Source: Leucoraja ocellata (lineage: Eukaryota). From it: DNA of 64,000 bases. Location of the stretch: the NCBI GenBank assembly GCA_036785375.1, contig JAWMAR010000034.1, positions 1,798,001 to 1,862,000 on the forward strand. The letters are read 5' to 3'. Position numbers and translations under genes: made by a program. How positions within the stretch are numbered: position 1 is the stretch's first letter; each line of letters begins with the position of its first letter. The notes under the pieces were generated by a model, which saw only the letters and a list, made by a program, of their open reading frames with translations, did no database searches and was not told the origin of the DNA. This document shows, in pieces, positions 5,986 through 59,160 of the stretch.

Positions 5986-6549
5986 ACACTCCCACTCCCT
6001 CAGTCAATGGACACACAGAATAGAATGCAGGGTAATTCAATGCAGGACTTGGGGAGTTGTGCAACACCAATGCATTACACAGATCTTGCAGCTCATAAGC
6101 AAACCAGCAGATCCATATGCAGTTCCGTTCCATATGAAATTCCTCGATAATTAATGGAGCTCTAACAAATTATCTTGCAATTCTCTTTGCCTTCTTGGAA
6201 AAGGTTAACTTCTACTTAACCTTAATTTGCCTTGGAAATTGGCTCAGTCGTAAAAGTTCCAATTTGACCGGGTCTAATCTAAACTTGGTTTATGCCTGAG
6301 TAATTAGAGAGAGATTCAGCACTGAATCCATGTCAACAATCAATCATTTCGCTTTTAGATATTTTAGAGATACAGCGTGGAAAGAGGCCCTTTGGCTCAC
6401 CGACCAGCGATCCCCGCACATTAACACAATCCTACACACACTAGGGACAATTTACATTTATACCAAGCCAACTAACCGACAAACCTGAGGTAGACACAAA
6501 ATGCTGGAGTAACTCAGCGGGACAGGGAGCATCTCTGGGGAGAAGGAAT

Positions 6550-6584
6550 GGGTGACGTTTCAGGTCGAGACCCTTCTTCAGACT
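6550..6584 (-). ncRNA. Minimal type I hammerhead ribozyme motif (GUC site) in the PLE terminal repeat
   Basis: Minus strand: AGT-CTGAAGA-A-GGGT CTCG ACCT-GAA-ACGT-C-ACCC. Confidence 0.8.
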
Positions 6585-6690
6585 GATGTCAGGGGAGTGG
6601 GCTGTACAGAGATAAAATGTAGTCGGAGACGGTAAAACTGGTGGGAAAACTGGGAAGAGGGAGGGGATGGAGAGAGAGAGAAAGCAAGAG

Positions 6691-7017
6691 CTACTTGAAG
6701 TTAGAGAAATCAATGTTCATACCGCTGGGGTGTAAACTACCCACGCAAAATATGAGGTGCTGTTCCTCCAATTTGCGCTGGGCCTCACTCTGACAGTGGA
6801 GGAGGCCCAGGGCAGAAAAGTCAGATTGGGAATGTGAGGAGGAGTTAAAGTGCTGAGCAACGGGGAGATCAGGTAAATTGAGGCAGACTGAGCAGAGGTG
6901 TTCAGTGCAACGATCGCCGAGCCTGCGCTTGGTCCCGTCGATATACAGGAGTCGACAGCTGGAACAGCGGATACAGGAGATGAGATTGGAGGAGGTGCAA
7001 GTGAACCTCTGCCTCAC
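6691..7017 (-). pseudogene. Penelope-like GIY-YIG endonuclease domain, decayed
   Basis: FTCTSSNLISCIRCSSCRLLYIDGTKRRLGDRCTEHL...PVAQHFN...H...RKLEEQHLIFCVGSLHPSGMN; the YIG motif is mutated to YID. Confidence 0.88.
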
Positions 7018-8283
7018 CTGACAAGACTGTAGGGGTCCTTGGACGGAGGGAAAGGGACAGGTGTTGCATCTCCTGCAGTTGCAGGGAAAAGTACCTGGGG
7101 GAGGGGGTGGTTTGGGTGGGAAGGGACGAGTTGACCAGGGAGTTGCGGAGGGAATGGTCTCTGCAGATAGCGGAAAGAGGTGGAGATGGGAAGATGTGGC
7201 CAGTAGTGGGATCCCGTTGGAGGTGGCGAAAATGTCGGAGGATTATGTGCTGTATGCGATGGCTGATGGGGTGGAAGGTGAGGACATGGGGGACTCTTTC
7301 CTTGTTATGAATGTGGGGAGGGGGAGGGGGAGCTAGAGCGGAGCTGCAGTATATCCAGCAGACTCTAGTGAGATCCTAATTTATAATGGAAGAGGGGAAC
7401 CCCTGTTCTCTAAAGAATGAGGTCATCTCCGATGACATGGTAGGAAAATCCTTATCCTGGGCACAGATGTAGCGTAGACGGGGGAATTGGGAGTAGGGGA
7501 TAAAGTATTTACAGGAAGCAGGATGGGAAGAAGTGTATTCTAGTTAACTATGGGAGTCAGTGGGTTTGTAATAGATGCCAGTCGATAGTCTGTCTCCTGT
7601 GATGGAGACGGTGAGATCTTGAAACTGTAGGAAGATGTCGGAGATTCAGATTCAACTTTAATTGTCATTGTCAGTGTACAGTACAGAGACAACGAAATGC
7701 AGTAGTCCAAGTGAATTTGAGTGCAGGATGGAAATTAGTCGTGAAGATGACGTCAGTGGGGTCTACTTTGAAGAAGTTCTCCTCATCTTTTCGACGAGAG
7801 TTCAGATTCCTACACAACCTACAAACTTATACATCTTTGGAGTTTTTTCACAAGGCTTTCTATAAGCCTTCTTTATAAACCTGCCCCAAAGACATTTGCA
7901 GAAATGCAGAGAATGTCTTGCTGTCCTGATTAAGAACAGCGAACATATGTCAATATGGCCTAGATAAAGAGCTGAGACAGCCAAAAATAAGCCATGTAGA
8001 TGGGCCTACTCCCACTCCTAACTCCTATGTTTGTATGCACCCACACAAATGCAAGGTGGACTTCAAAAAAAGAATTCAGGGAAGGATAATAAATACTAGC
8101 CCTCATTCGGCATAATAATTCGAAGAAAAAGATGCATTTAGTTTGTTTCCTCCTGACAAGTGTCTATAGACATTACCCAGCCAAGAGCACTACATAAATG
8201 CTAATTGTGCTTCAGCAGTGTACTCTCTGCGATTGCCAAATTCAGTCAGGCCAGATCCAAAGCATCCATGTTTTTTGCTTGAT

Positions 8284-8582
8284 TGAAAGATACAGTGTGG
8301 AAACAGGCTCTTTGGTCCACTGAGCCCATTCCGGCCATCGATCACCTGTTCATACTAGTTCACTTGTTATCTCACTTTCCCATCCGCTCGCTACACGCTA
8401 GGGGCAATTTGCAGAGGCCAATTAACCGACAAACCTGCACGTCTTTGGGATGTGGGTGGAAGCCAGAGCACCCATGCGGTGATGGGGGAGAAGTTGCAAC
8501 GTCCACATGGACAGCACCCAAGGTCAGGATCGAACCCTGGTCTCTGATGCTGTCAAGTAGCAAACGTGTCACTGTGCCACCT
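8284..8582 (-). mobile_element. HE1-like V-SINE
   Basis: Reverse complement of head, B-box (GGATCGAACC) and tail. Confidence 0.85.
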
Positions 8583-8585
8583 AGT

Positions 8586-8908
8586 TCATAGGTCACAGGT
8601 GATAGGAGCAGAATTAGGCCATTCGACCATCATCCACTCCGCTATTCAATCATGGTTGATCTAACTTTCCCTCCTAACCCCATTCTCCTGCCTTCCTCCC
8701 ATAACTCCTGACACCCATACTAATGAAGTATCATACTATCTCCGCCTTAAAAATATCCATTGACTTGGCCTCAACAGCCTTCCACAGATTCCACAGATTC
8801 ACCAGCCTCTGGCCAAAGAAATTCCTCCTCATCTCCTTCCTAAAGGAAGGGCCTTTATTTCTGAGGCTATGACCTCTAGTCCGAAACTCTCCCACCAGTG
8901 GAAACAAT
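8586..8908 (-). mobile_element. CR1 LINE 3' fragment
   Basis: GGAGCAGAATTAGGCCATTCG...TTCCACAGATTCACCA. Confidence 0.85.
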
Positions 8909-9254
8909 GGAGTGAATCGTTATGTGCCCTGAGTTCATTATACTCTATTTTTCCAGAAAATATGATGACTTTCCATGTGCTCTGCTAGCAGTGATATTGC
9001 AGTGAATAATTTCCAATGGTGTTTCAGAGGGCACCCAGTCTAAGCATCAATCATTCTTTACTCCAGTGTAATGTGATTCAAGACAGTGTAATGGTTTCTT
9101 TATTATTGTCCCCGGGGATATGGTTAATTGTTCATCCTGCCGCCACCGCTGTGATATTGTCCTCCAACTCGAACAGTCAGTGGATTTCAGGATTAAAGTT
9201 TAACAATGATGATAGCTCAGGGTTTACCGGGGCCACTGAGAATGAAGGAGCGAT

Positions 9255-10084
9255 CTGGGGTATAATGTGGATAAATGTGAGGTTATCCATTTTGGTGGCA
9301 AAAACGGGAAAGTAGACTATTATCTAAATGGTGGCCGATTGGGAAAGGGGGAGATGCAGCGAGACCTGGGTGTCATGGTACACCAGTCATTGAAGGTAGG
9401 CATGCAGGTGCAGCAGGCAGTAAAGAAAGCGAATGGTATGTTAGCTTTCATTGCAAAAGGATTTGAGTATAGGAGCAGGGAGGTTCTACTGCAGTTGTAC
9501 AGGGTCTTGGTGAGACCACACCTGGAGTATTGCGTACAGTTTTGGTCTCCAAATCTGAGGAAGGACATTATTGCCATAGAGGGAGTGCAGAGACAGTTCA
9601 CCAGACTGATTCCTGGGATGTCAGGACTGTCTTATGAAGAAAGACTGGATAGACTTGGTTTATACTCTAGAATTTAGGAGATTGAGAGGGGATCTTATAG
9701 AAACTTACAAAATTCTTAAGGGGTTGGACAGGCTAGATGCAGGAAGATTGTTCCCGATGTTAGGGAAGTCCAGGACAAGGGGTCACAGCTTAAGGATAAG
9801 GGGGAAATCCTTTAAAACCGAGATGAGAAGAACTTTTTTCACACAGAGAGTGGTGAATCTCTGGAACTCTGCCACAGAGGGTAGTTGAGGCCAGTTCATT
9901 GGCTATATTTAAGAGGGAGTTAGATGTGGCCCTTGTGGCTAAGGGGATCAGGGGGTATGGAGAGAAGGCAGGTACGGGATACTGAGTTGGATGATCAGCC
10001 ATGATCATATTGAATGGCGGTGCAGGCTCGAAGGGCCGAATGGCCTACTCCTGCACCTAATTTCTATGTTTCTATGTTTCTATG
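9255..10084 (+). mobile_element. Young HER1-like CR1 LINE, 5'-truncated, with (TTTCTATG)n tail
   Basis: Peptide DKCEVIHFG...RDLGVMVHQSLKV...LVRPHLEYCVQFWSP...EERLDRLGLYS, frameshifting into EFRRLRGDLIETYKILKG; 3' UTR and octamer tail present. Confidence 0.95.
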
Positions 10085-10315
10085 GGTGGGGGGGCGCATA
10101 CGGCCGCGGCAGCGGCAGGCCTGGATCACGGTGTGAGCAGAAGATAACACTGTTCGATTAATATTTTGTAACCTTATTGGTGCCAGAACCGTAGCGACTC
10201 TCGTCTCCTGCTGCTTGGGGAGGTCTGCTGTACGATGTTACCGGGTTGTATACAAAACAAAGATTTTCACTGCACCTATGTAGATGTGACAATAATTTAT
10301 CATAGCATCATTGAA
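10085..10315 (+). mobile_element. Non-autonomous element fragment with Rex-type 3' tail
   Basis: TGGTGCCA...TTTTCACTGCACCT..ATGTGACAATAA; related to 28960-29235, 31180-31461 and 35350-35712. Confidence 0.5.
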
Positions 10316-10532
10316 TCACCCCATGGTGTGTGACATGGGATGTTTGCATGTAATAGCAGTGTTCTTAATGGTGGCGGAGACCACAGAATAGGAATGTCTT
10401 GACATTATAACCTTATTGCGTCAGTGGTAGGTGATACGCCATGGGTAACCCAGCAGAGGCATCGTCAAGGAGGGAACTTTTCCATTCTACTTGTCCCTCA
10501 GTCCCAGCAACAACAGATTGTTCCCAACTGCT

Positions 10533-10935
10533 GCAGCCACAGTGGCGCAGAGATAGAGATGCTGCCTTACAGCGCCAGAGACTCGGGTTCGATCCTGCCT
10601 ATGGGCGCTTGTCTGTAAGGAGTTTGTGCCTTCTCCCCTAGACCTGCGTGGGTTTTCTCCGGGATCTCCAGTTTCCTCCCACACTCCGAAGACATACAGG
10701 TTGGTAGGTTGTTTAAGATGGAACTGCAGATGTTGGAAAATCGAAGGTAGACAAAAATGCTCGAGAAACTCAGCGGGTGCAGCAGCATCTATGGAGCGAA
10801 GGAAATAGGCAAAGTTTTGGTCCGAAACATTGCCTATTTCCTTCGTTCCATAGATGCTGCTGTACCCGCTGAGTTTCTCCAGCATTTTTGTCTACCTCAG
10901 GTTGGTAGGTTAATTGGCTTGGTATAATTGCTAAG
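10533..10935 (+). mobile_element. HE1-like V-SINE interrupted by a PLE fold-back insert
   Basis: Head CACAGTGGCGCAG and B-box GGTTCGATCC; the SINE resumes after 10897. Confidence 0.88.
10711..10897. mobile_element. Fold-back (palindromic) Penelope terminal-repeat mini-element with 14 bp target duplication
   Basis: Arms about 10745-10819 and 10822-10897 are near-perfect inverted repeats; CAGGTTGGTAGGTT at 10697-10710 and 10898-10911. Confidence 0.9.
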
Positions 10936-12129: not shown

Positions 12130-12983
12130 GGGGGCGCTGCTCTGGCACCAGCCGTGTCAGCAGCGCGTCAGTTTTTTTCAACTTTTTTTATTTTTTAGTA
12201 TGTTTTAAAGTATGTATTTAATGTTCCTTCGTGTGTCTTGTGTGGGGGGTGGTGTGGGGGAGGGGGGGGTAAGGGGGAAACCGCTTCGGTCGCCTCCTCC
12301 ATGGAGAGGCGAGTTTTTCCAGGTCGCCTCCCCCGTGGCCTAACATCAAGGATCGGCGCGGCCTTTCCCGGAGACACGCCCGAGGATTCAGCGGCGGGCG
12401 CAGCGTGGACTCTCGGCGTGGAGCGGGTGAGTCCTCGCTGGGGCTCGCTGGAGGGGAGCGCTCCTTTTCGCTGGCCCGGGGCTGCCGGCAGCCTGAAGCC
12501 GCGGTCTGCAGAGTTCCAGCTGGCGCGGCGCTTACAGCCCGGGATCCCTCGTGGGGGACCCGGGGGAAGAAGAAGCCATCACTGCCGGCCCTCGGCCAAC
12601 TTCTACCGCGGGCCCGGCATGGACTCACCATCACCCCTGGAGGGGAGCTTCGACCACCGGCCCTGCAGTCTACGGTGCTTCTGGCTGCGGCGGAGCCTTT
12701 AAATCTCGACCGATCGGCCTACACCATCTTAAAGCCGCGGTCTCCGGTGAGGAAGAGCCGATCCTGGACTGACTCTGGACTCTGGTCCTGTCCACGGGGG
12801 GGAAATGGAGGAGGACTGGACAAATTTTGTGCCTTCCACCACAGTGATGAATGCTGCGGTGGATGTTTGTGTTACAGTTTTATTGTGGTTGTGTGTTCTT
12901 TATTATTGTACTGCTGCTGACAACCCAAATTTCCACCGACCCTGGTTGTGTGGCAATAAATTATATCTTATCTTATCTTATCA
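12130..12983 (+). mobile_element. GC/CpG-rich non-autonomous retroelement ending in AATAAA plus (TCTTA)n
   Basis: CpG-rich body; the 3' part AAATGGAGGAGGACTGG...GCCTTCCACCACAGTGATGAAT recurs at 50305-50400; microsatellite tail. Confidence 0.75.
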
Positions 12984-18857: not shown

Positions 18858-19312
18858 GTAGTTGAGAGATACAGCGTGGAAACAGGCTCTTTGGCCCACT
18901 GAGACCATGCCGACCAACAGTCACCGTCGACTAACATATACTACATTTTAGAGACAAGTTAACTACCAACCTGTACCTAGAAACATAGAAACATAGAAGC
19001 ATAGCAAATTGGTGCAGGAGGAGGCCATTCGGCCGTTCGAGCCAGCACCGTCATTCATCGTGATCATGGCCGATCGTCCCTAATCAATAACCAGTGCCTG
19101 CCTTCACTCCCATATCCCTTGATTCCACTAGCCCCCTAGAGCTCTATCTAACTCCTGTTTGGAATGTGGGAGGAAACCAGAGCACCCAAAGAAAGCTCAC
19201 GTGGTCACAAGGAAAGCTCAAGGACCATTCAGACAGCACCCATAGTCAGGATCAAACCCAGGTCTCTGACACTGTAAGGTAGCAACTCTACTGCTGCACC
19301 AGTGTGCCGCCC
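18858..19312 (-). mobile_element. HE1-like SINE split by a CR1 tail (about 18978-19152)
   Basis: SINE tail, then a CR1 end with (TAGAAACA)n, then the SINE head. Confidence 0.85.
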
Positions 19313-22214: not shown

Positions 22215-22988
22215 GGGTGGCACAGTGGCGCAGCTAGTAGAATCACTGCCTCATGGTGCCAGAGACCCAGGTTCAATCCTGACCTCAGGGGCAATCTATG
22301 TGGGGTTTGCATGTTCTCCCTGCGACAACTTGTACAGATACATGGATAGACAATAGACAATAAACAATAGACAATAGGTGCAGGAGTAAGCCATTCAGCC
22401 CTTCAAGCTAGCACCGCCATTCAATGTGATCATGGCTGATCATCCCCAATCAGTACCCCGTTCCTGCCTTCTCTCCATATCCCCTGACTCCGCTATTTTT
22501 AAGAGCCCTACCTAACTCTCTCTTGAAAGCATCCAGAGAACCTGCCTCCACCACCCTCTGAGGCAGAGAATTCCACAGACTCACCACTCTCTGTGAGAAA
22601 AAGTGTTTCCTCGTCTCTGTTCAAAATGGCTTACTCCTTATTCTTATTCAGGAAAGGTTTAGAGGAACATGGGCCAAACACAGCCAGGTGGGACTAATGT
22701 AGATGGGGCAATACGATTGGCACGGGCAAGTTGGGCCGAAGGGCCTGTTTCTGTGCTGTATGACTATGACCTTGGATTTCCCTTGGGTGCTCTGGTTGTC
22801 TCCCACAACTGAAAGGTGTATGGATGAGTGAGTTAATTGAACACTGTAAACTGTGTAGGTGAGTGGTGAAATTTGGGGAGCCAGCAGAGGGCAGAATAAA
22901 AAGAATTGGATTAATGTGGATTTAGTGTAAGTGAGTTCTTATGGTCAATGTGGCCAGATGGCCTGTTTCTCCATTGTATCTCTCTCTG
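22215..22988 (+). mobile_element. HE1-like SINE with nested CR1 ends (22348-22648 minus, (ACAATAG)n tail; about 22650-22768 plus)
   Basis: SINE head 22215-22325; SINE resumes at about 22770. Confidence 0.82.
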
Positions 22989-24893: not shown

Positions 24894-25290
24894 AAGTCAT
24901 ACAGCACAGAAATAGACCCTTCGGCCCACCTTGCCCCTGTACAAATGCCTATATTAATACAATTTGCCAGCCCCTGTTCCATAGTCCTCATCCTTTGCCA
25001 ATTTAAGTGCTTTGCAAAATTAAATTTGGGGAATAAAGTAAAAATCCACACCCGTTCCCATCATCAGATTTGCGATGGTCTGGATCCTATCTTTTGTGAT
25101 GTGAGAAAGATCAGTCGTGTCTTAATGATAATCACCGTAGGGATTTTACTGCAAGAACAGCCAGACAAGCGTTGAAGAGCAATTAATTCAAACGTTGTTT
25201 TACACCAGGACTAACTCCTGAAGTTGGGTCTTAAGAGATGGGGGAGCAGTTGAACAAAATTAAAGAGTGTGAAAACCAAGTCTCAAGACT

Positions 25291-25576
25291 GGGTCTGAAG
25301 AAGGGTCCTGACCCGAAACATCACGTGATGTATTCAAGAGAGAGTTAGATAGATGTATTCAAGAGAGAGTTAGATATAGCTCTTAGGGTTAACTGAATCA
25401 AGGGATATGACGAGAAAGCAGGAACAGGGTACTGATTGTGGATGATCAGCCATAATCATATTGAATGGCGGTACTGGCTCCTGCACCTGTTTTCTATGTT
25501 GCTAAGTCACCCATCCTTTCTCTCCAGAGATGCTGCCTGACCTGTTGAGGTGTGCCAGCACTTTGTGTCTATCTTG
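25291..25576 (+). mobile_element. PLE hammerhead monomer split by a CR1 3' end (25325-25505)
   Basis: GGGTCTGAAGAAGGGTCCTGACCCGAAACATCAC, then CR1, then GTCACCCATCC...GTGTCTATCTT. Confidence 0.85.
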
Positions 25577-38697: not shown

Positions 38698-38981
38698 TAA
38701 GCTAATACACAACCTGCACAGGTAATTCCCAGCCTGCGAGCCAAGCTGGGATTTAAATAAAAGTAGGAGAAACTGAGGTCTTCCATCTGCTGGTCTCTGC
38801 CAGCATTTTCTATTTCTCTTTCGGGTTTTCTGCATCTGCAGTTCATTTTTTCAGGCATTGATTGACTCCCTGGAAATATATTTATGTTAAATCTTAAGTC
38901 ATAGTATGGAAACAGGCCCTTCGGCCCAACTCATCCATGCCAATCAACTTGCCCTATCTGAACCCATATCCCCATAGATCT

Positions 38982-39085
38982 GAAGATCGGTCTGAAGAAG
39001 GGTTTCGGCCCGAAACGTTGCCTATTTCCTTCGCTTCATAGATGCTGCTGCACCCGCTGAGTTTCTCCAGCTTTTTTGTGTAACC
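38982..39085 (+). mobile_element. Young PLE hammerhead monomer with 13 bp target duplication, inside a minus-strand CR1 end (about 38897-39347)
   Basis: TCCCCATAGATCT at 38969-38981 and 39086-39098. Confidence 0.9.
38989..39022 (+). ncRNA. Minimal type I hammerhead ribozyme motif, intact core (GUU site)
   Basis: GGT-CTGAAGA-A-GGGT TTCG GCCC-GAA-ACGT-T-GCC; stem I GGU/GCC; stem II capped by UUCG. Confidence 0.85.
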
Positions 39086-40162
39086 TCCCCATAGATCTTT
39101 CCTACCCATGTACTTGTCCAAATGTCTTCTAAATGCTGTTACAGTGCCTGCCTCAACTACCATCCAGTTTTTCCCTTCCCCCACGACAATCAGTCGTAAA
39201 AAGCATCCCAAACCTAAACGTCAGCTGCCCACTTTCTCCAGAGATGCCTCCTGACCCGCTGAGTAACTCCAGTATTTTGGGTCCATCCACCACCCCTTGC
39301 AGCTATTTCTATAATCCCACCACCCTCTGAGTGAAAAAGTTGCCTCAGGAAAATCTCTCACCATCCCTTTCAAAAACCCAGGCCTCGGAATCATTTTGGA
39401 AGAGCAGGAACTTGAAAAGTGTAACTCTGCTACTGACAAGTCAGACCTCGGAGAGACTTTGGTCCTGGATTCTACCTCTCTAATCTCAGTTGCCGATCCA
39501 TTAAACAATATTTTTATTCATCATTTCCATGCAACAAGTATACCTAAGTGCCCAAAATCTAATAAATTATAAATACAGATTAAAACTTCCTTGACTAAAC
39601 CCACTCGAGCGTTCATACAAAGCCACATAAACGTTCACACGATATACCTTGCGGTTGCATTATTTATTAGGAACTGAAACATTTATGTACAGACAAGAGA
39701 AACAGTGGTTTCAGGAGAATATACCATTTTAATGCTATTTAGGTGTATTTGTCCCTGGGAGTTTTTTGGATCCCAAACAATCTGCAATGCCTGGAGCCAC
39801 AAGTTCACAGAACCACACTCCTAAGGCCAAGTGTTGTAAATGCACTGACTTTCTTCACAATTGCACTCAGTATCGAGCCTCTATATCGACAAAGACAAAC
39901 AAAGACCTTGCAGGAATATGGCTATTTAACTTTCCTTTTTGCTCCCCACATACAGAGATAGGGAAGAAATGGCCCATTGCAGTCCAGCCCACAAATAAAT
40001 AATGACCCCATCGATTCATATGTGACTGAGATAGCATTGTGGTTAAGTCACCGGACTAGCAGGCAAAATTGTAGATCATTGATCCACAGACAACAGGTCA
40101 AATCTCCCCGCAATAGCTGGGGAGTTTAAATGTGAGCAATTAAATCAATTTGTACCTTTGAA

Positions 40163-41790
40163 GCAACACGGTGGTGCAGCTGATAGAGCTGCTGCCTCAC
40201 AGCGCCAGAGACCCAGGTTTGATCCTGACCTCGGGTGTTGTCTATGTGGAGTTTACCACAGGGGTTGGTGTTGGGCCAGTTACTTTTCACATTGTATATT
40301 AATGATTTGGGTGATGAAATGTATGGATTTGTGGTCATTATTGTGGATGATGCGAGGATAGGCTGGTAATGTTGAGGAAGCAGGGAGTCTGCGGATGGCC
40401 GGACAGGTTGGCAGAATGCGCAAAGAATTGGCAAATGGAATAGAGCGCTGCAAAATGTACGGTCATGCACTTTGGGAGAAGGAATAAAGGCGTAGACTGT
40501 TTTTTAAATGAGGAGAGGATTCTCTGTCTGTGGAATTCTCTGCCTGAGAGGGTGGTGGAGGCAGGGTCTCTAGATGCTTTCAAGAGAGCTAGATAGGGCT
40601 CTTAAAAATAGCAGAGTCAGGGGATATGGGGCGAAGGCAAGAACGAGGTGCAGGAGTAGGTCATTCGGCCCTTCAATCTGTTGTTCTTGGACTTGAAAAG
40701 AGGAGAAAGGTAACAGGGTAATAGAAGATTTAAAACAGAGGTAGCATGTTACAAAGGTTCTCTATTCATTGTGTGATGTCTCAACCACGTACATTACAAT
40801 GATATGGGGAGAAGGCAGCAACGGGGTACTGATTGGGGATGTTCAGCCATGATCACATTGAATGGTTCGCTGGCTCGAAGGGCCGAATGGCCTGCTCCTG
40901 CACTTATTGTCTATTGTCTATTGGTTCAGAAACAGGAGGTGCCAAGGGAATTGGGAGTACTGGTGCAGGGTTTCCTAAAGGTTGATTTGCAGGTTAAATC
41001 GGCAGTGAAGATGGCAAATGCAATGATAGCATTAATTTCAAGAGGACTAGAATATAAAAGCAAGAATGTAATACTGAGGCTTTACAAGGCACTGCTCAGG
41101 CCAAATTTGGAACATTGCAAGCAGTTTAGACCCGGTACCTGAGGAAGGGTGTGTTGGCATTGAAGAGGGTCCAGGGGAGATTTACGAGAATGATCCTGAG
41201 GATGATTGGGTTAATGTATGAGGAGCCTTTGATGGCGATGGGCCTGTTCTCACTGAAGTTTAGAAGGATGGGGGTCTCATTGAAACCTACTGAATAATGA
41301 AAGGTCTAGAATGGATGTGGAGAGGATGTTTCCAGTAGTGAGAGAAAGCCTCCGATCTGAGGGCAGAGGCTCAAAATTAAAGGATGTACCTTTAGAATGG
41401 AGATGAGGAGGAATTTCTTTAGCCAGAGGCTGGGGAATCTGTGGAATTCATTGCCACAGACAGCAGTGGAGGCCAAGTCATTGGGTGTTTGTAAAGCAGA
41501 GATTGACATATTCTGGGTTAGTAAGGGTGTCGAGGGTTACAGGGAAAAAGCAGAAGAATGGGGATGAAAGGGAGAAATAGATCAGCCGTGATCAATTGGC
41601 AGAGCAGATCGATGGGCCAAATGGCCTCATTCTGCTCTTACATCTGATGATCCTTGCACATTCTCCCTGTGACCATGTGGGTTTCCTCCGGGTGCTCGGG
41701 TTCCCTCTCACGTCACAAAGATAGGCGGGTTTGTAGATTAATTGGCCTCTGTAAAATTTCCCCAATGGATGGAAAGTGGGATAAGTTGTG
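40163..41790 (+). mobile_element. HE1-like SINE (40163-40255, 41655-41790) split by composite CR1 fragments (40256-41648)
   Basis: CR1 peptides PQGLVLGQLLFTLYINDL and ANAMIALISRGLEYKSKNVILRLYKALLRPNLEHC; the SINE V-domain resumes at TTGCACATTCTCCC. Confidence 0.85.
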
Positions 41791-46230: not shown

Positions 46231-46339
46231 AGGTAGACAAACATGCTGAAGAAACTCAGCGGGTGAGGCAGCATCTATGGAGCGAAGGAAATAAGCAATG
46301 ATTCGGGACGAAACCCTTCTTCAGGCGGATGCTTCAGAC
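46231..46339 (-). mobile_element. PLE hammerhead monomer nested in another PLE repeat
   Basis: AGGTAGACAAAC...ACCCTTCTTCAG flanked by GGTACTG(T/C)GG repeats. Confidence 0.75.
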
Positions 46340-50207: not shown

Positions 50208-51245
50208 TAGTTTAGTTTAGTTTAGAGATACAGTGCGGAAACAGGCCCTTCGGCCCACTGGGTCCGCGCCAACCAGCGATCCCCGCATATTAATACTATC
50301 CTATAAATGGAGGAGGACTGGCCAAATTGTGTGCCTTCCACCACAGTGATGAATCCTGTGGTGGATGTTTATGTTAAAATTTTATTGTGTTTTTGTGTGT
50401 GCCCTTTATAAGATAAGATAAGATAAGATACATTTATTGTCATTTGGACCCCTTGAGGTCCAAACGAAATGCCGTTTCTGCAGCCATACATACAAACACA
50501 TAGACCCAAGACACAACATAATTTACATAAACATCCATCACATTGCTGTGATGGAAGGCCAAATAAACTTATTTCTCCACTGCACTCTCCCCCCCCCCCC
50601 GATGTCAGAGTCAAAGTCAAAGCCCCCGGCTGGCGATGGCGATTGTCCCGCGGCCATTAAAGCCGGGTGGTGCGAGGTCGCACACCGGGTCTTGGTGTTA
50701 GAGCCCCCGGCGTGCGCTCGCAGAGTCCCGTGGCCATTCCAAGCCGCGCGGGGCAGTGCTGTCAGGCCCCGCTCCAGGAGCTCTTCAACCCCGCAACTCG
50801 GGCGGGGGAAGTCGCCGTTGCAGGAGCCCTGAAAAGCGGTCTCCCTCCAGGGAGCCGCGGGCTCCCGGTGCCGCCGTCCACAGACCTGTCGTTGGAGCCT
50901 CCGACTCTCCGGTCGGGCCGCAGCAGCATTGTATCATTGTATCGCTGCTGACATATCATTTCACTTGCACTTCTTGTGCAATGTGACAAATAAACCGTTG
51001 TATTGTATTGTATTGTATTGTACCCACTAGGGACAATATTTACATTTACCAAGTCATTTAACCTAGAACCCTGTACGTCTTTAGAGTGTGGGAAGAAACG
51101 GAAGGATTTGGAGAAAACCCACGCAGGTCATGGGAGAACGTACAAACTCCGTATAGACAGCACCCGTAGTCGGGATCGAACCCCGGTCTCCTGGCGCTGC
51201 ATTCGCTGTAAGGCAGCAACTCTACCGCTGTGCCACCGTTCCGCT
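50208..51245 (-). mobile_element. HE1-like SINE (50208-50303, 51023-51245) hosting two nested non-autonomous retroelements
   Basis: SINE tail and head are separated by element A (plus, 50304-50406 and 50929-51022, (TTGTA)n tail) and element B (minus, 50407-50928, (TCTTA)n tail, CpG-rich). Confidence 0.82.
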
Positions 51246-53051: not shown

Positions 53052-53428
53052 GTTTAAGAGGGAACTGCAGATGCTGGAGAATCGAAGGTTACACAAAAAT
53101 GCTGGAGAAACTCAGCGGGTGCAGCAGCATCTATGGAGCGAAGGAAATAGGCAACGTTTCGGGCCGAAACCCTTCTTCAGACTGATCGGGGGTGGGGGCG
53201 GGGGTGGGTGGGGACAAGAAAGGGAAAAGGAGGAGGAGCCCGAAGGCTAGGGGATGGGAGGAGACAGCAGGGGGGCTGAGGAAGGGGAGGAGACAGCAAG
53301 GACTAACAAAATTGGGAGAATTCGATGTTCATGCCCCCGGGATGCAGACTCCCCAAACGGAATATGAGGTGCTGTTCCTCCAATTTCCGGTGCTGCTCGC
53401 TGTGGCCATGGAGGAGACCCAGGACAGA
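53052..53428 (-). mobile_element. Young Penelope-like 3' fragment with 9 bp target duplication
   Basis: SVLGLLHGHSEQHRKLEEQHLIFRLGSLHPGGMNIEFSQFC then stop; GTTCATGTC at 53043-53051 and 53429-53437. Confidence 0.9.
53150..53183 (-). ncRNA. Minimal type I hammerhead ribozyme motif, intact core
   Basis: Minus strand: AGT-CTGAAGA-A-GGGT TTCG GCCC-GAA-ACGT-T-GCC. Confidence 0.85.
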
Positions 53429-53545
53429 GTTCATGTCATTGGGTTGCAGCCAATGCATGTGGAATATGAGATGATATTCCTCTAGCTTACATTTGGCTTC
53501 ACCCTGGCAGTGGGAGAGGCAGAGAACAGGCAGGTTGAGTGTGGG

Positions 53546-53644
53546 GAGGAACTGCAGATGCTGGTTTACACCGAAGATAGACACAAAATGCTGGAGTAAC
53601 TGAGAAACCCACTGAGTTACTCCAGCATTTTGTGTCTATCTGCA
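53546..53644. mobile_element. Short fold-back PLE repeat with 12 bp target duplication
   Basis: GTTGAGTGTGGG at 53534-53545 and 53645-53656; AGATAGACACAAAATGCTGGAGTAACT and its inverse. Confidence 0.85.
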
Positions 53645-56869: not shown

Positions 56870-57390
56870 AACAAATAGGGTGAACGCATAGTTGTTTACC
56901 CAGGAGAGGGAGGGGAATCAAGAGCCAGCGGTCTAACGTGAGAGAGGAAAGAGTTAACAGGGACCTGAGGGGCAACTTTTTCCACACACAAGGTGATGGT
57001 TGTATGGAATGAGCTGCCAGTGGAGGTATGTGTGTAGGAAGGAACTGTGGATGGTGGTTTACACCGAAGATAGACACAAGAAGCTGGAGTAACTCTGGGG
57101 GTCAGGCAGCATCTCTGGAGAAAAGGAACAGGTGATGTTTTGGGACAAGACCCTTCCTCAGACTGAGAGTCAGGGGAGAGGGAAACGAGAGAGATAGGAG
57201 TTGCATTGAACAAATGAATGAACGATATGCAAAAAGCAACGAAGATCCAGGAAAAGTGGAGCCCACAATGGTCCATTGTTGGCTGTGGGGAAGGTAGTTG
57301 AGGCAGGGGCTATAGCAGTATGTAAAGAACACTTGGACAGGTACATGGATAGGAAAGGTTTAGAGGGATAGGGGCCAAACGCAGGCAAAT
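56870..57390 (+). mobile_element. CR1 3' fragment split by a PLE terminal-repeat element (57029-57290, minus)
   Basis: CR1 GAGGTA / AGGTAGTTGAGG flanks; insert reads TGTGTAGGAAGGAAC...ACCCTTCCTCAGACTGAGAG. Confidence 0.85.
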
Positions 57391-59031: not shown

Positions 59032-59160
59032 AGTCTGAAGAAGGGTCTTGACCCAAAACGTCACCCATTCCTTCTCTCCAGAGATGCTGCCTGTCCCGCT
59101 GAGTTACTCCAGCGTTTTGTGTCTATTTTCGGTTTAAACCAGCACCTGCAGTCCCTTCCT
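59032..59160 (+). mobile_element. PLE hammerhead monomer with tail extension
   Basis: AGTCTGAAGAAGGGTCTTGACCCAAAACGTCACCC...CTGCAGTCCCTTCCT. Confidence 0.85.

Follow-up and report, generated by a model that had tools for sequence, protein, structure and literature searches.

Two Penelope-like insertions at one 14-bp site of a tRNA-headed SINE: a lead towards a probable, modest nested-insertion hot spot

Described Penelope-like elements and reused landing sites

The way in which Penelope-like elements (PLEs) choose their targets in vivo is poorly known. In the EN+ PLEs of the Neptune and Nematis type, a C-terminal GIY-YIG domain follows the reverse transcriptase (RT), with a CX2-5CxxC linker, and copies of these elements show 5' truncation, an inverted pLTR and a 30–40 bp tail at one end; the Cys linker of Neptune has been proposed to bias insertion to microsatellites, and rDNA targeting has been reported for nuclease-less PLE families (PMC8557442). 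For PAc, a Poseidon element of Anolis carolinensis, biochemical work showed nicking of both strands, RT starts at two fixed internal positions on either side of the tail, priming that needs no primer-template homology, and a loose ATT/AT-rich target preference in vitro (PMC11167929). Repeated use of one position is documented in human repeats, where 654 of 799 insertion types were non-uniform and single-position, orientation-biased hot spots are the rule, often with the canonical motif absent; these data comprise about 300,000 events of Alu, L1, MaLR, ERV1 and hAT, with no PLE among them (PMC2836564). As for possible hosts, the HE1 V-SINE and its HER1 LINE partner occur in sharks and rays (PMC3747384, PMC4824008). 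Among the papers listed by literature searches, which covered mainly openly accessible texts, we found no description of PLE hot spots in elasmobranch SINEs.

Here, we analyzed two PLE inserts, A and B, in a 64-kb window (the whole stretch of DNA under study) of a genome that looks batoid (ray or skate). As in the Neptune/Nematis copies described, A and B have pLTRs, 5' truncation, an inverted 5' copy and a tail (in B a probable one), and B encodes CX4CxxC and GIY-YIG; in contrast to the proposed microsatellite bias, PLE targets in the window lie outside microsatellites and carry clear 9–15 bp duplications. PAc belongs to another clade, and its reported ATT/AT-rich preference is invisible in 11 sites of the window, which are not AT-rich (53.6% vs 54.1%). 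Similar to the human hot spots outlined above, one consensus position was reused in one orientation, but by PLEs and in only two events. Reuse of a position in a multicopy target is likewise a feature of the site-specific elements R2, Utopia, Dada and Selaginella PLE-X (28S rDNA), which are reported to be confined to their own target, whereas the PLEs in the window lie at many unrelated sites.

Anatomy of the two inserts and their hosts

Using a SINE consensus derived from 8 intact copies in the window, we determined that inserts A and B each duplicate positions 164–177 of one tRNA-headed SINE, this segment being present twice in both hosts, one copy on each side of the insert. The coordinates and sequences of the original prediction were right, and the consensus alignment agrees with its claim that both inserts have the same orientation along the SINE. 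The host of A (plus strand) comprises a 5' part at 10542–10710 (consensus 11–177, 88.2% to the consensus) and a 3' stub at 10898–10930 (consensus 164–196, 93.9%), with an upstream duplication copy at 10697–10710 that matches the copy after the inner end, 10898–10911, at 14/14 positions. The host of B (minus strand) comprises a 3' part at 6360–6487 (consensus 164–302, 83.5%) and a 5' stub at 7816–7843 (consensus 150–177, 89.3% over 28 bp, E 1e-4); its duplication copies lie after the inner end at 6474–6487 (consensus 164–177) and upstream at 7816–7829 (placed by consensus alignment) and agree at 11/14 positions, so that the three mismatches predicted earlier are confirmed. Each host is truncated on one side, after 196 in A and before 150 in B, and in the SINE site the duplicated segment is directly followed by AATT. 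A tRNA was called by ARAGORN at the SINE head at 1681–1753, the sole copy to pass in the window, and SINE 3' ends match positions 5–80 of the profile of a LINE-tail-like family that may be HER1. With its tRNA-like head, central body and LINE-like tail family at the 3' end, the host SINE may be similar to HE1.

Insert A (10711–10897) is non-coding and consists of a 34-bp inverted tail (10711–10744, minus strand; A positions 1–34), which lies outside the palindrome and matches the pLTR profile end, and a head-to-head pair of 5'-truncated pLTRs of the A-type subfamily (10745–10897), a 153-bp palindrome with arms 92.8% alike that ends in GTCTACCT. For this palindrome, the Rfam matches were all to generic hairpins and below gathering.

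Insert B ends in the same GTCTACCT, at the inner end of a direct pLTR (6488–6584, minus strand) that matches the pLTR profile and belongs to the B-type subfamily (91.8% to a copy at 59032). Hammerhead-like core words, CTGAAGA and GAAA, are visible in this pLTR with a short stem; the Rfam search gave no hammerhead ribozyme match. A decayed, 5'-truncated ORF at 6691–7745 (minus strand) retains the RT end, the CX4CxxC linker and the GIY-YIG endonuclease and lacks the RT core. In three frames it matches residues 37–369 of the Mobula protein P0001 at 60–69%, with which it has the CX4CxxC linker in common. A Pfam search with B's own three fragments gave zero matches and the GIY-YIG match of P0001 is weak (E 5e-4, below cut-off), while the full-length relatives P0009 and P0013 carry RVT_1 and GIY-YIG. 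From ORF content and linker, insert B is putatively assigned to the Neptune-type PLEs of the EN+ class. The first ~55 nt of B (7761–7815, plus strand) align weakly to tails in the window: the match to the tail outer end extends over 9 nt only, and alignment to the two best-matching tails, out of six in the window, scores above 99.3–99.7% of random 58-mers, with weak values for the remaining four (2–22%). This piece gave no sense RT match, nor did its inverted frame match any of 154 proteins; we read it as a probable divergent tail/ORF-start segment in inverted orientation, with a tentative tail of ~47 bp. The proposal that both inserts start with the outer end of the terminal repeat is qualified in B, where the match is limited to these 9 nt.

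The common end predicted for both inserts is present, but GTCTAYCT is the usual inner end of the family (element ends account for 8 of 13 exact matches), and the shared GTCTACCT lies outside the coincidence. Target duplications of 10–15 bp are likewise routine among PLE inserts in the window (clear ones, 9–15 bp). Because inner end and duplication length are both normal for the family, there is one coincidence to explain and not several.

Phylogenetic analysis of 21 pLTR copies placed A in a clade of seven (100% bootstrap) from which B is excluded, and the two are further set apart by diagnostic indels, size and structure. That they belong to different pLTR subfamilies supports independence of the two insertions. 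The flanks of the A and B hosts are identical at 29/33 and 22/28 positions, as different as unrelated copies, and in the unique DNA beyond the hosts no long match was found between the two loci. These results bear out the earlier view that the pair is not a local duplication.

A shared site and its possible origins

On balance, we consider it probable that two independent target-primed insertions by Neptune-type PLEs of two subfamilies hit a modest hot spot of the ordinary kind known for nested insertions, rather than the target of a SINE-targeting element. In this model, built on the anole PLE work, the GIY-YIG nuclease would nick each strand once, with a stagger of 14 nt; copying from a fixed inner start would be primed at one nick, so that the element ends in GTCTACCT, while the other would prime an inverted segment that starts at the tail. 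Tail, inverted repeat and 14-bp duplication make up the observed anatomy, to which nicking and priming of this kind would give rise. The common site may reflect a loose, degenerate nuclease preference, with a high-copy SINE offering one favourable position over and over, tens of times in 64 kb.

A first alternative is pure coincidence, i.e. near-uniform target choice by some twenty insertions in a window of which the SINE occupies about a tenth. An exact same-site, same-orientation pair is expected in 0.14–0.73% of windows on the BLAST homology map and in 0.6–3.1% on a wider map (1 in 54–158 for 27–16 inserts); since chance supplies one in 0.1–3% of 64-kb windows, a large scan would meet many. 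In line with coincidence, PLEs are not enriched in the SINE (2 of about 16–27 inserts vs 9.9% of the window), and 18 other copies of the site in the window are free of any PLE. Likewise, 11 target sites yielded no common motif (total information, P=0.24; B omitted as a duplicate of A, inserts lacking a usable duplication left out), in a test with 59% power for four columns at 80% and 8–22% for weaker motifs. Against it, the same position and orientation has a probability of about 0.0016 under uniform use, given two inserts in the SINE, and the window holds a second PLE pair, no more than 1 bp apart, in a different repeat family (a LINE-like tail), which duplicates profile positions 178–184 and 177–185 of that family. 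Under uniform use, at least two such close pairs (within 1 bp) are expected in 0.02–0.4% of windows; the second pair alone has P 2–14%, was recognized post hoc, and has short duplications with one inner and one outer end mixed. Uniform use is, moreover, the exception among human nested retroelement insertions (PMC2836564). We regard coincidence as rather unlikely. The second near-same-site pair tilts the interpretation towards a real but mild site bias; if target use were concentrated 12–25-fold, one exact pair would have a probability of 20%.

A strong form of targeting, in which nuclease or priming of these PLE lineages recognizes the SINE site as a dominant target conserved across subfamilies, appears improbable to us. 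Both PLE inserts in SINE bodies (2/2) lie at one position, and two divergent subfamilies used the same 14-nt stagger. Recognition might lie in the GGTT words of the site, echoing the element's own tail: 5/8 bases of the site match the B-type tail in register, and one duplication copy at 53530 has CAGGTTG, offset 1 nt from the SINE site (noted post hoc). Against this reading, the A and B subfamilies are both found at unrelated sequences too, and each of the 10 other targets departs from the SINE site at 9–14 of 14 bases. Where site-specific retrotransposons place most insertions at one target, only 2 of the 19 PLE inserts examined lie at this site. Microhomology between targets and RNA tail, seen with A and B included (34/96 vs 24.5, P=0.018), disappears without them (27/88 vs 22.4 expected, P=0.16; 14/55 vs 14.0, P=0.55). 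Priming of the anole PLE was non-homologous in the in vitro assays described (PMC11167929), and a hairpin or unusual DNA fold at the site was rejected, four 101-nt folds being ordinary (z 0.13–0.30). Dedicated targeting is thus not supported: nearby, these elements also sit in many sequences unrelated to the site. As for the original prediction of a GIY-YIG nuclease or priming preference for this SINE site, it is not supported as a statement about the nuclease's target, in view of 2/19 inserts, 18 empty copies and no motif, and is likely in the milder form of a site bias, given the conditional probability and the second pair.

There is a slim chance of a broader version, in which several subfamilies of skate/ray Neptune-type PLEs have one dominant oriented landing position in the commonest SINE, with a few others in LINE tails, and in which a conserved GIY-YIG recognition rule other than microsatellites or AT-richness determines these positions.

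Least probable is a single ancestral PLE-in-SINE composite that was copied, converted, rearranged or joined in assembly: it would accommodate the identical right-hand junctions, the hosts truncated on opposite sides and facing opposite ways 2.9 kb apart, and the 3/14 differences between the B duplication copies, but is largely refuted by the pLTR tree, with the indels, structure and host divergence described above and a separate duplication and unshared unique flank at each locus.

Implications and related observations

Modest reuse of a site is general among nested insertions, and the present observation, with its two events, is a lead only. If real, a hot spot of this kind, in a SINE of high copy number, would allow the cleavage rule and the 14-nt stagger to be derived cheaply from a single genome; were one position dominant, thousands of nested events would reveal how a vertebrate PLE nuclease chooses its targets in vivo and how it spaces its nicks. 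Shared PLE-in-SINE junctions also call for caution in their use as homologous markers. Outside the window, two translated-junction protein searches gave one match in all, which does not cross into the SINE, and scanning contigs of prokaryotic genomes for the DNA pattern gave 0, both in collections ill-suited to finding a copy of the junction.

General fragility of this SINE position was also considered and found unpersuasive, with 1/4 non-PLE interruptions nearby. Three of these interruptions lie at consensus 92–93, about 111 and 215–217. In a third SINE copy, a LINE-like fragment is located 3–6 bp upstream of the site.

Duplication of one SINE segment around two inserts

The window consists of vertebrate-type DNA that is rich in repeats and contains assembly gaps. 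A ~310 bp SINE with a tRNA-like head, a candidate HE1 element, occupies 9.9% of it. The V-SINE listed for sharks and rays is HE1, with HER1 as its partner (PMC3747384; PMC4824008). Using a consensus derived from 8 intact copies of the SINE within the window, we aligned the hosts of two Penelope-like element (PLE) inserts, insert A (10711-10897, plus-strand SINE) and insert B (6488-7815, minus-strand SINE). The host of A covers consensus positions 11-177 and 164-196 on either side of the insert, and that of B positions 150-177 and 164-302, so that positions 164-177 occur twice around each (duplication identity 14/14 for A and 11/14 for B). Both inserts share one orientation relative to the SINE, as originally predicted.

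A search of the window with a profile of the PLE terminal repeat (pLTR) gave 42 matches, which represent about 27 loci of Penelope type. A tree built from 21 pLTR copies places A, but not B, in a clade of seven with 100% bootstrap, which bears out the assignment to different subfamilies; the closest copy is 92.9% alike for A and 91.8% for B. The flanks of the two host SINEs also differ (29/33 and 22/28), and both hosts are truncated on one side, as are further SINE copies in the window. Taken together, the different pLTR clades and differing host flanks indicate two separate events, and A and B are real, independent insertions at the same site.

Structure of the inserts

Standard PLE anatomy comprises a tail, an inverted pLTR and 8-10 bp duplications (PMC3846280). 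Insert A (187 bp) opens with a 34-bp tail, and its remaining 153 bp form a palindrome of two truncated pLTRs; insert B (1328 bp) carries, in this order, an inverted ~55-bp piece, a decayed ORF and a direct pLTR. The ORF aligns at 60-69% with a Mobula protein (residues 37-369). The best named relatives come from the rays Mobula hypostoma and Rhinoraja longicauda, which makes a batoid fish the likely host. A CX4CxxC linker precedes the GIY-YIG region of the ORF, a hallmark of Neptune/Nematis-type PLEs (PMC8557442). RVT_1 and GIY-YIG are present in full-length relatives, and B's own ORF fragments gave no Pfam matches. In a gene model for neuromedin-U receptor 1 of Rhinoraja longicauda (P0003), the last 65-80 residues are PLE endonuclease sequence, which probably reflects an error of the gene model or exonisation of a PLE.

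The inner end GTCTACCT is common to A and B. The window has 13 exact occurrences of TGTCTAYCT; at 8 of them the element ends, and at 5 it continues into the tail. In vitro, an anole PLE is reported to nick both strands, with ATT preferred, and to begin reverse transcription, without target homology, at two internal points bounding the tail (PMC11167929). Such fixed starting points would account for the shared inner end. The original statement that B begins at the element's outer end is based on 9 nt; the 55-nt piece of B shows fair likeness to two of six tails tested and weak likeness to four. The reading frame of the pLTR end continues as an open frame through this piece (7761-7815), which may represent the tail or ORF start of a subfamily otherwise absent from the window.

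Chance and site preference

The 19 PLE inserts scored include, apart from A and B, nine flanked by clear duplications. These measure 9-17 bp, and in some the length is increased where duplication and element end overlap. Four more inserts have weak or short duplications and four have none. A stagger near 14 is thus common and, the inner end being fixed, the sole coincidence is one oriented position. Under uniform use, two inserts in the SINE share it with P 0.0016. An exact pair in any window repeat has a chance of 0.14-0.73% (12-27 inserts, BLAST map), or of 0.6-3.1% on a wider map that may over-count (16-35 inserts); it is unusual in a single window but routine across a scan of many.

A second pair was spotted post hoc in a LINE-like tail family, where inserts 39165-39289 (+) and 57030-57292 (-), unlike in length and in presence of a tail, have duplications of profile positions 178-184 (first insert) and 177-185 (second), no more than 1 bp apart and in the same orientation within the host family. 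For one such pair at a distance of 1-2 bp or less, P is 2-14%; for at least two pairs within 1 bp it is 0.0002-0.004. If target use were concentrated 12-25-fold, as a degenerate preference of the nuclease might bring about, one exact pair would be a 20% event. On balance we favor a modest hot spot of an ordinary kind; chance is a less likely account of the shared site.

The original prediction invoked a preference of the GIY-YIG nuclease or priming step for this SINE site. As a mild bias this fits the second pair; as strong targeting it is improbable. The site has 24 window matches at ≤3 mismatches: the four copies of the duplication, 18 further SINE copies free of PLEs, and two left unassigned. 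Ten other PLE targets differ from it at 9-14 of 14 bases, and both subfamilies have inserted elsewhere in the window. Alignment of 11 target sites gave no information above expectation (P=0.24; power 59% for a strong four-base motif, 8-22% for weaker ones) and no AT enrichment. Target-to-RNA-tail likeness disappears once A and B are left out, and folding at the site is not unusual. Protein searches with the translated junction, and a scan of prokaryotic contigs for its DNA pattern, yielded no second PLE-SINE junction, blanks that weigh little. A common origin of A and B is highly improbable, given their clades and flanks.

Of 799 types of nested insertion in human, 654 are reported to be unevenly distributed along the repeat that hosts them; the hot spots occupy single positions, are biased in orientation and often have no canonical motif (PMC2836564). 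Hot spots for PLEs within a SINE would add another case. Literature searches listed no account of elasmobranch SINEs as hot spots for PLE insertion, and target choice is not treated in the relevant portions of a retrozyme preprint (10.64898/2026.07.22.740005) or a killifish Neptune paper (PMC12602865).

Other interrupted repeats

The LINE-like tail family holds four PLE inserts, counting those at 45.9 kb and 57.1 kb; a single copy (38897-39335) contains two, ~80 bp apart. The host word CTACCT at the second-pair site is identical to the end of the PLE pLTR. PLEs at 53052-53430, 53540-53641 and 46231-46338 lie inside older PLE copies with their own 10-15 bp duplications, one copy of which, near 53530, has the CAGGTTG of the SINE site shifted by 1 nt. 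The PLE at 25264-25574 has a perfect 14-15 bp duplication and is interrupted by a LINE-like 3' fragment beginning with a 25-bp tandem repeat.

Another SINE copy is split at consensus 157-161 by a LINE-like 3' fragment (18978-19156, minus strand), 3-6 bp upstream of the PLE site and with no clear duplication. Further SINE interruptions lie at 40254-41654 (consensus 92-93), 22326-22767 (about 111) and 50303-51022 (215-217), the last an insert of ~700 bp that is rich in GC and bounded by microsatellites. Overlapping open frames occur in GC-rich stretches at 12200-12920 and 50420-50950, and since the latter sits within this SINE-splitting insert, these stretches are probably a repeat family.
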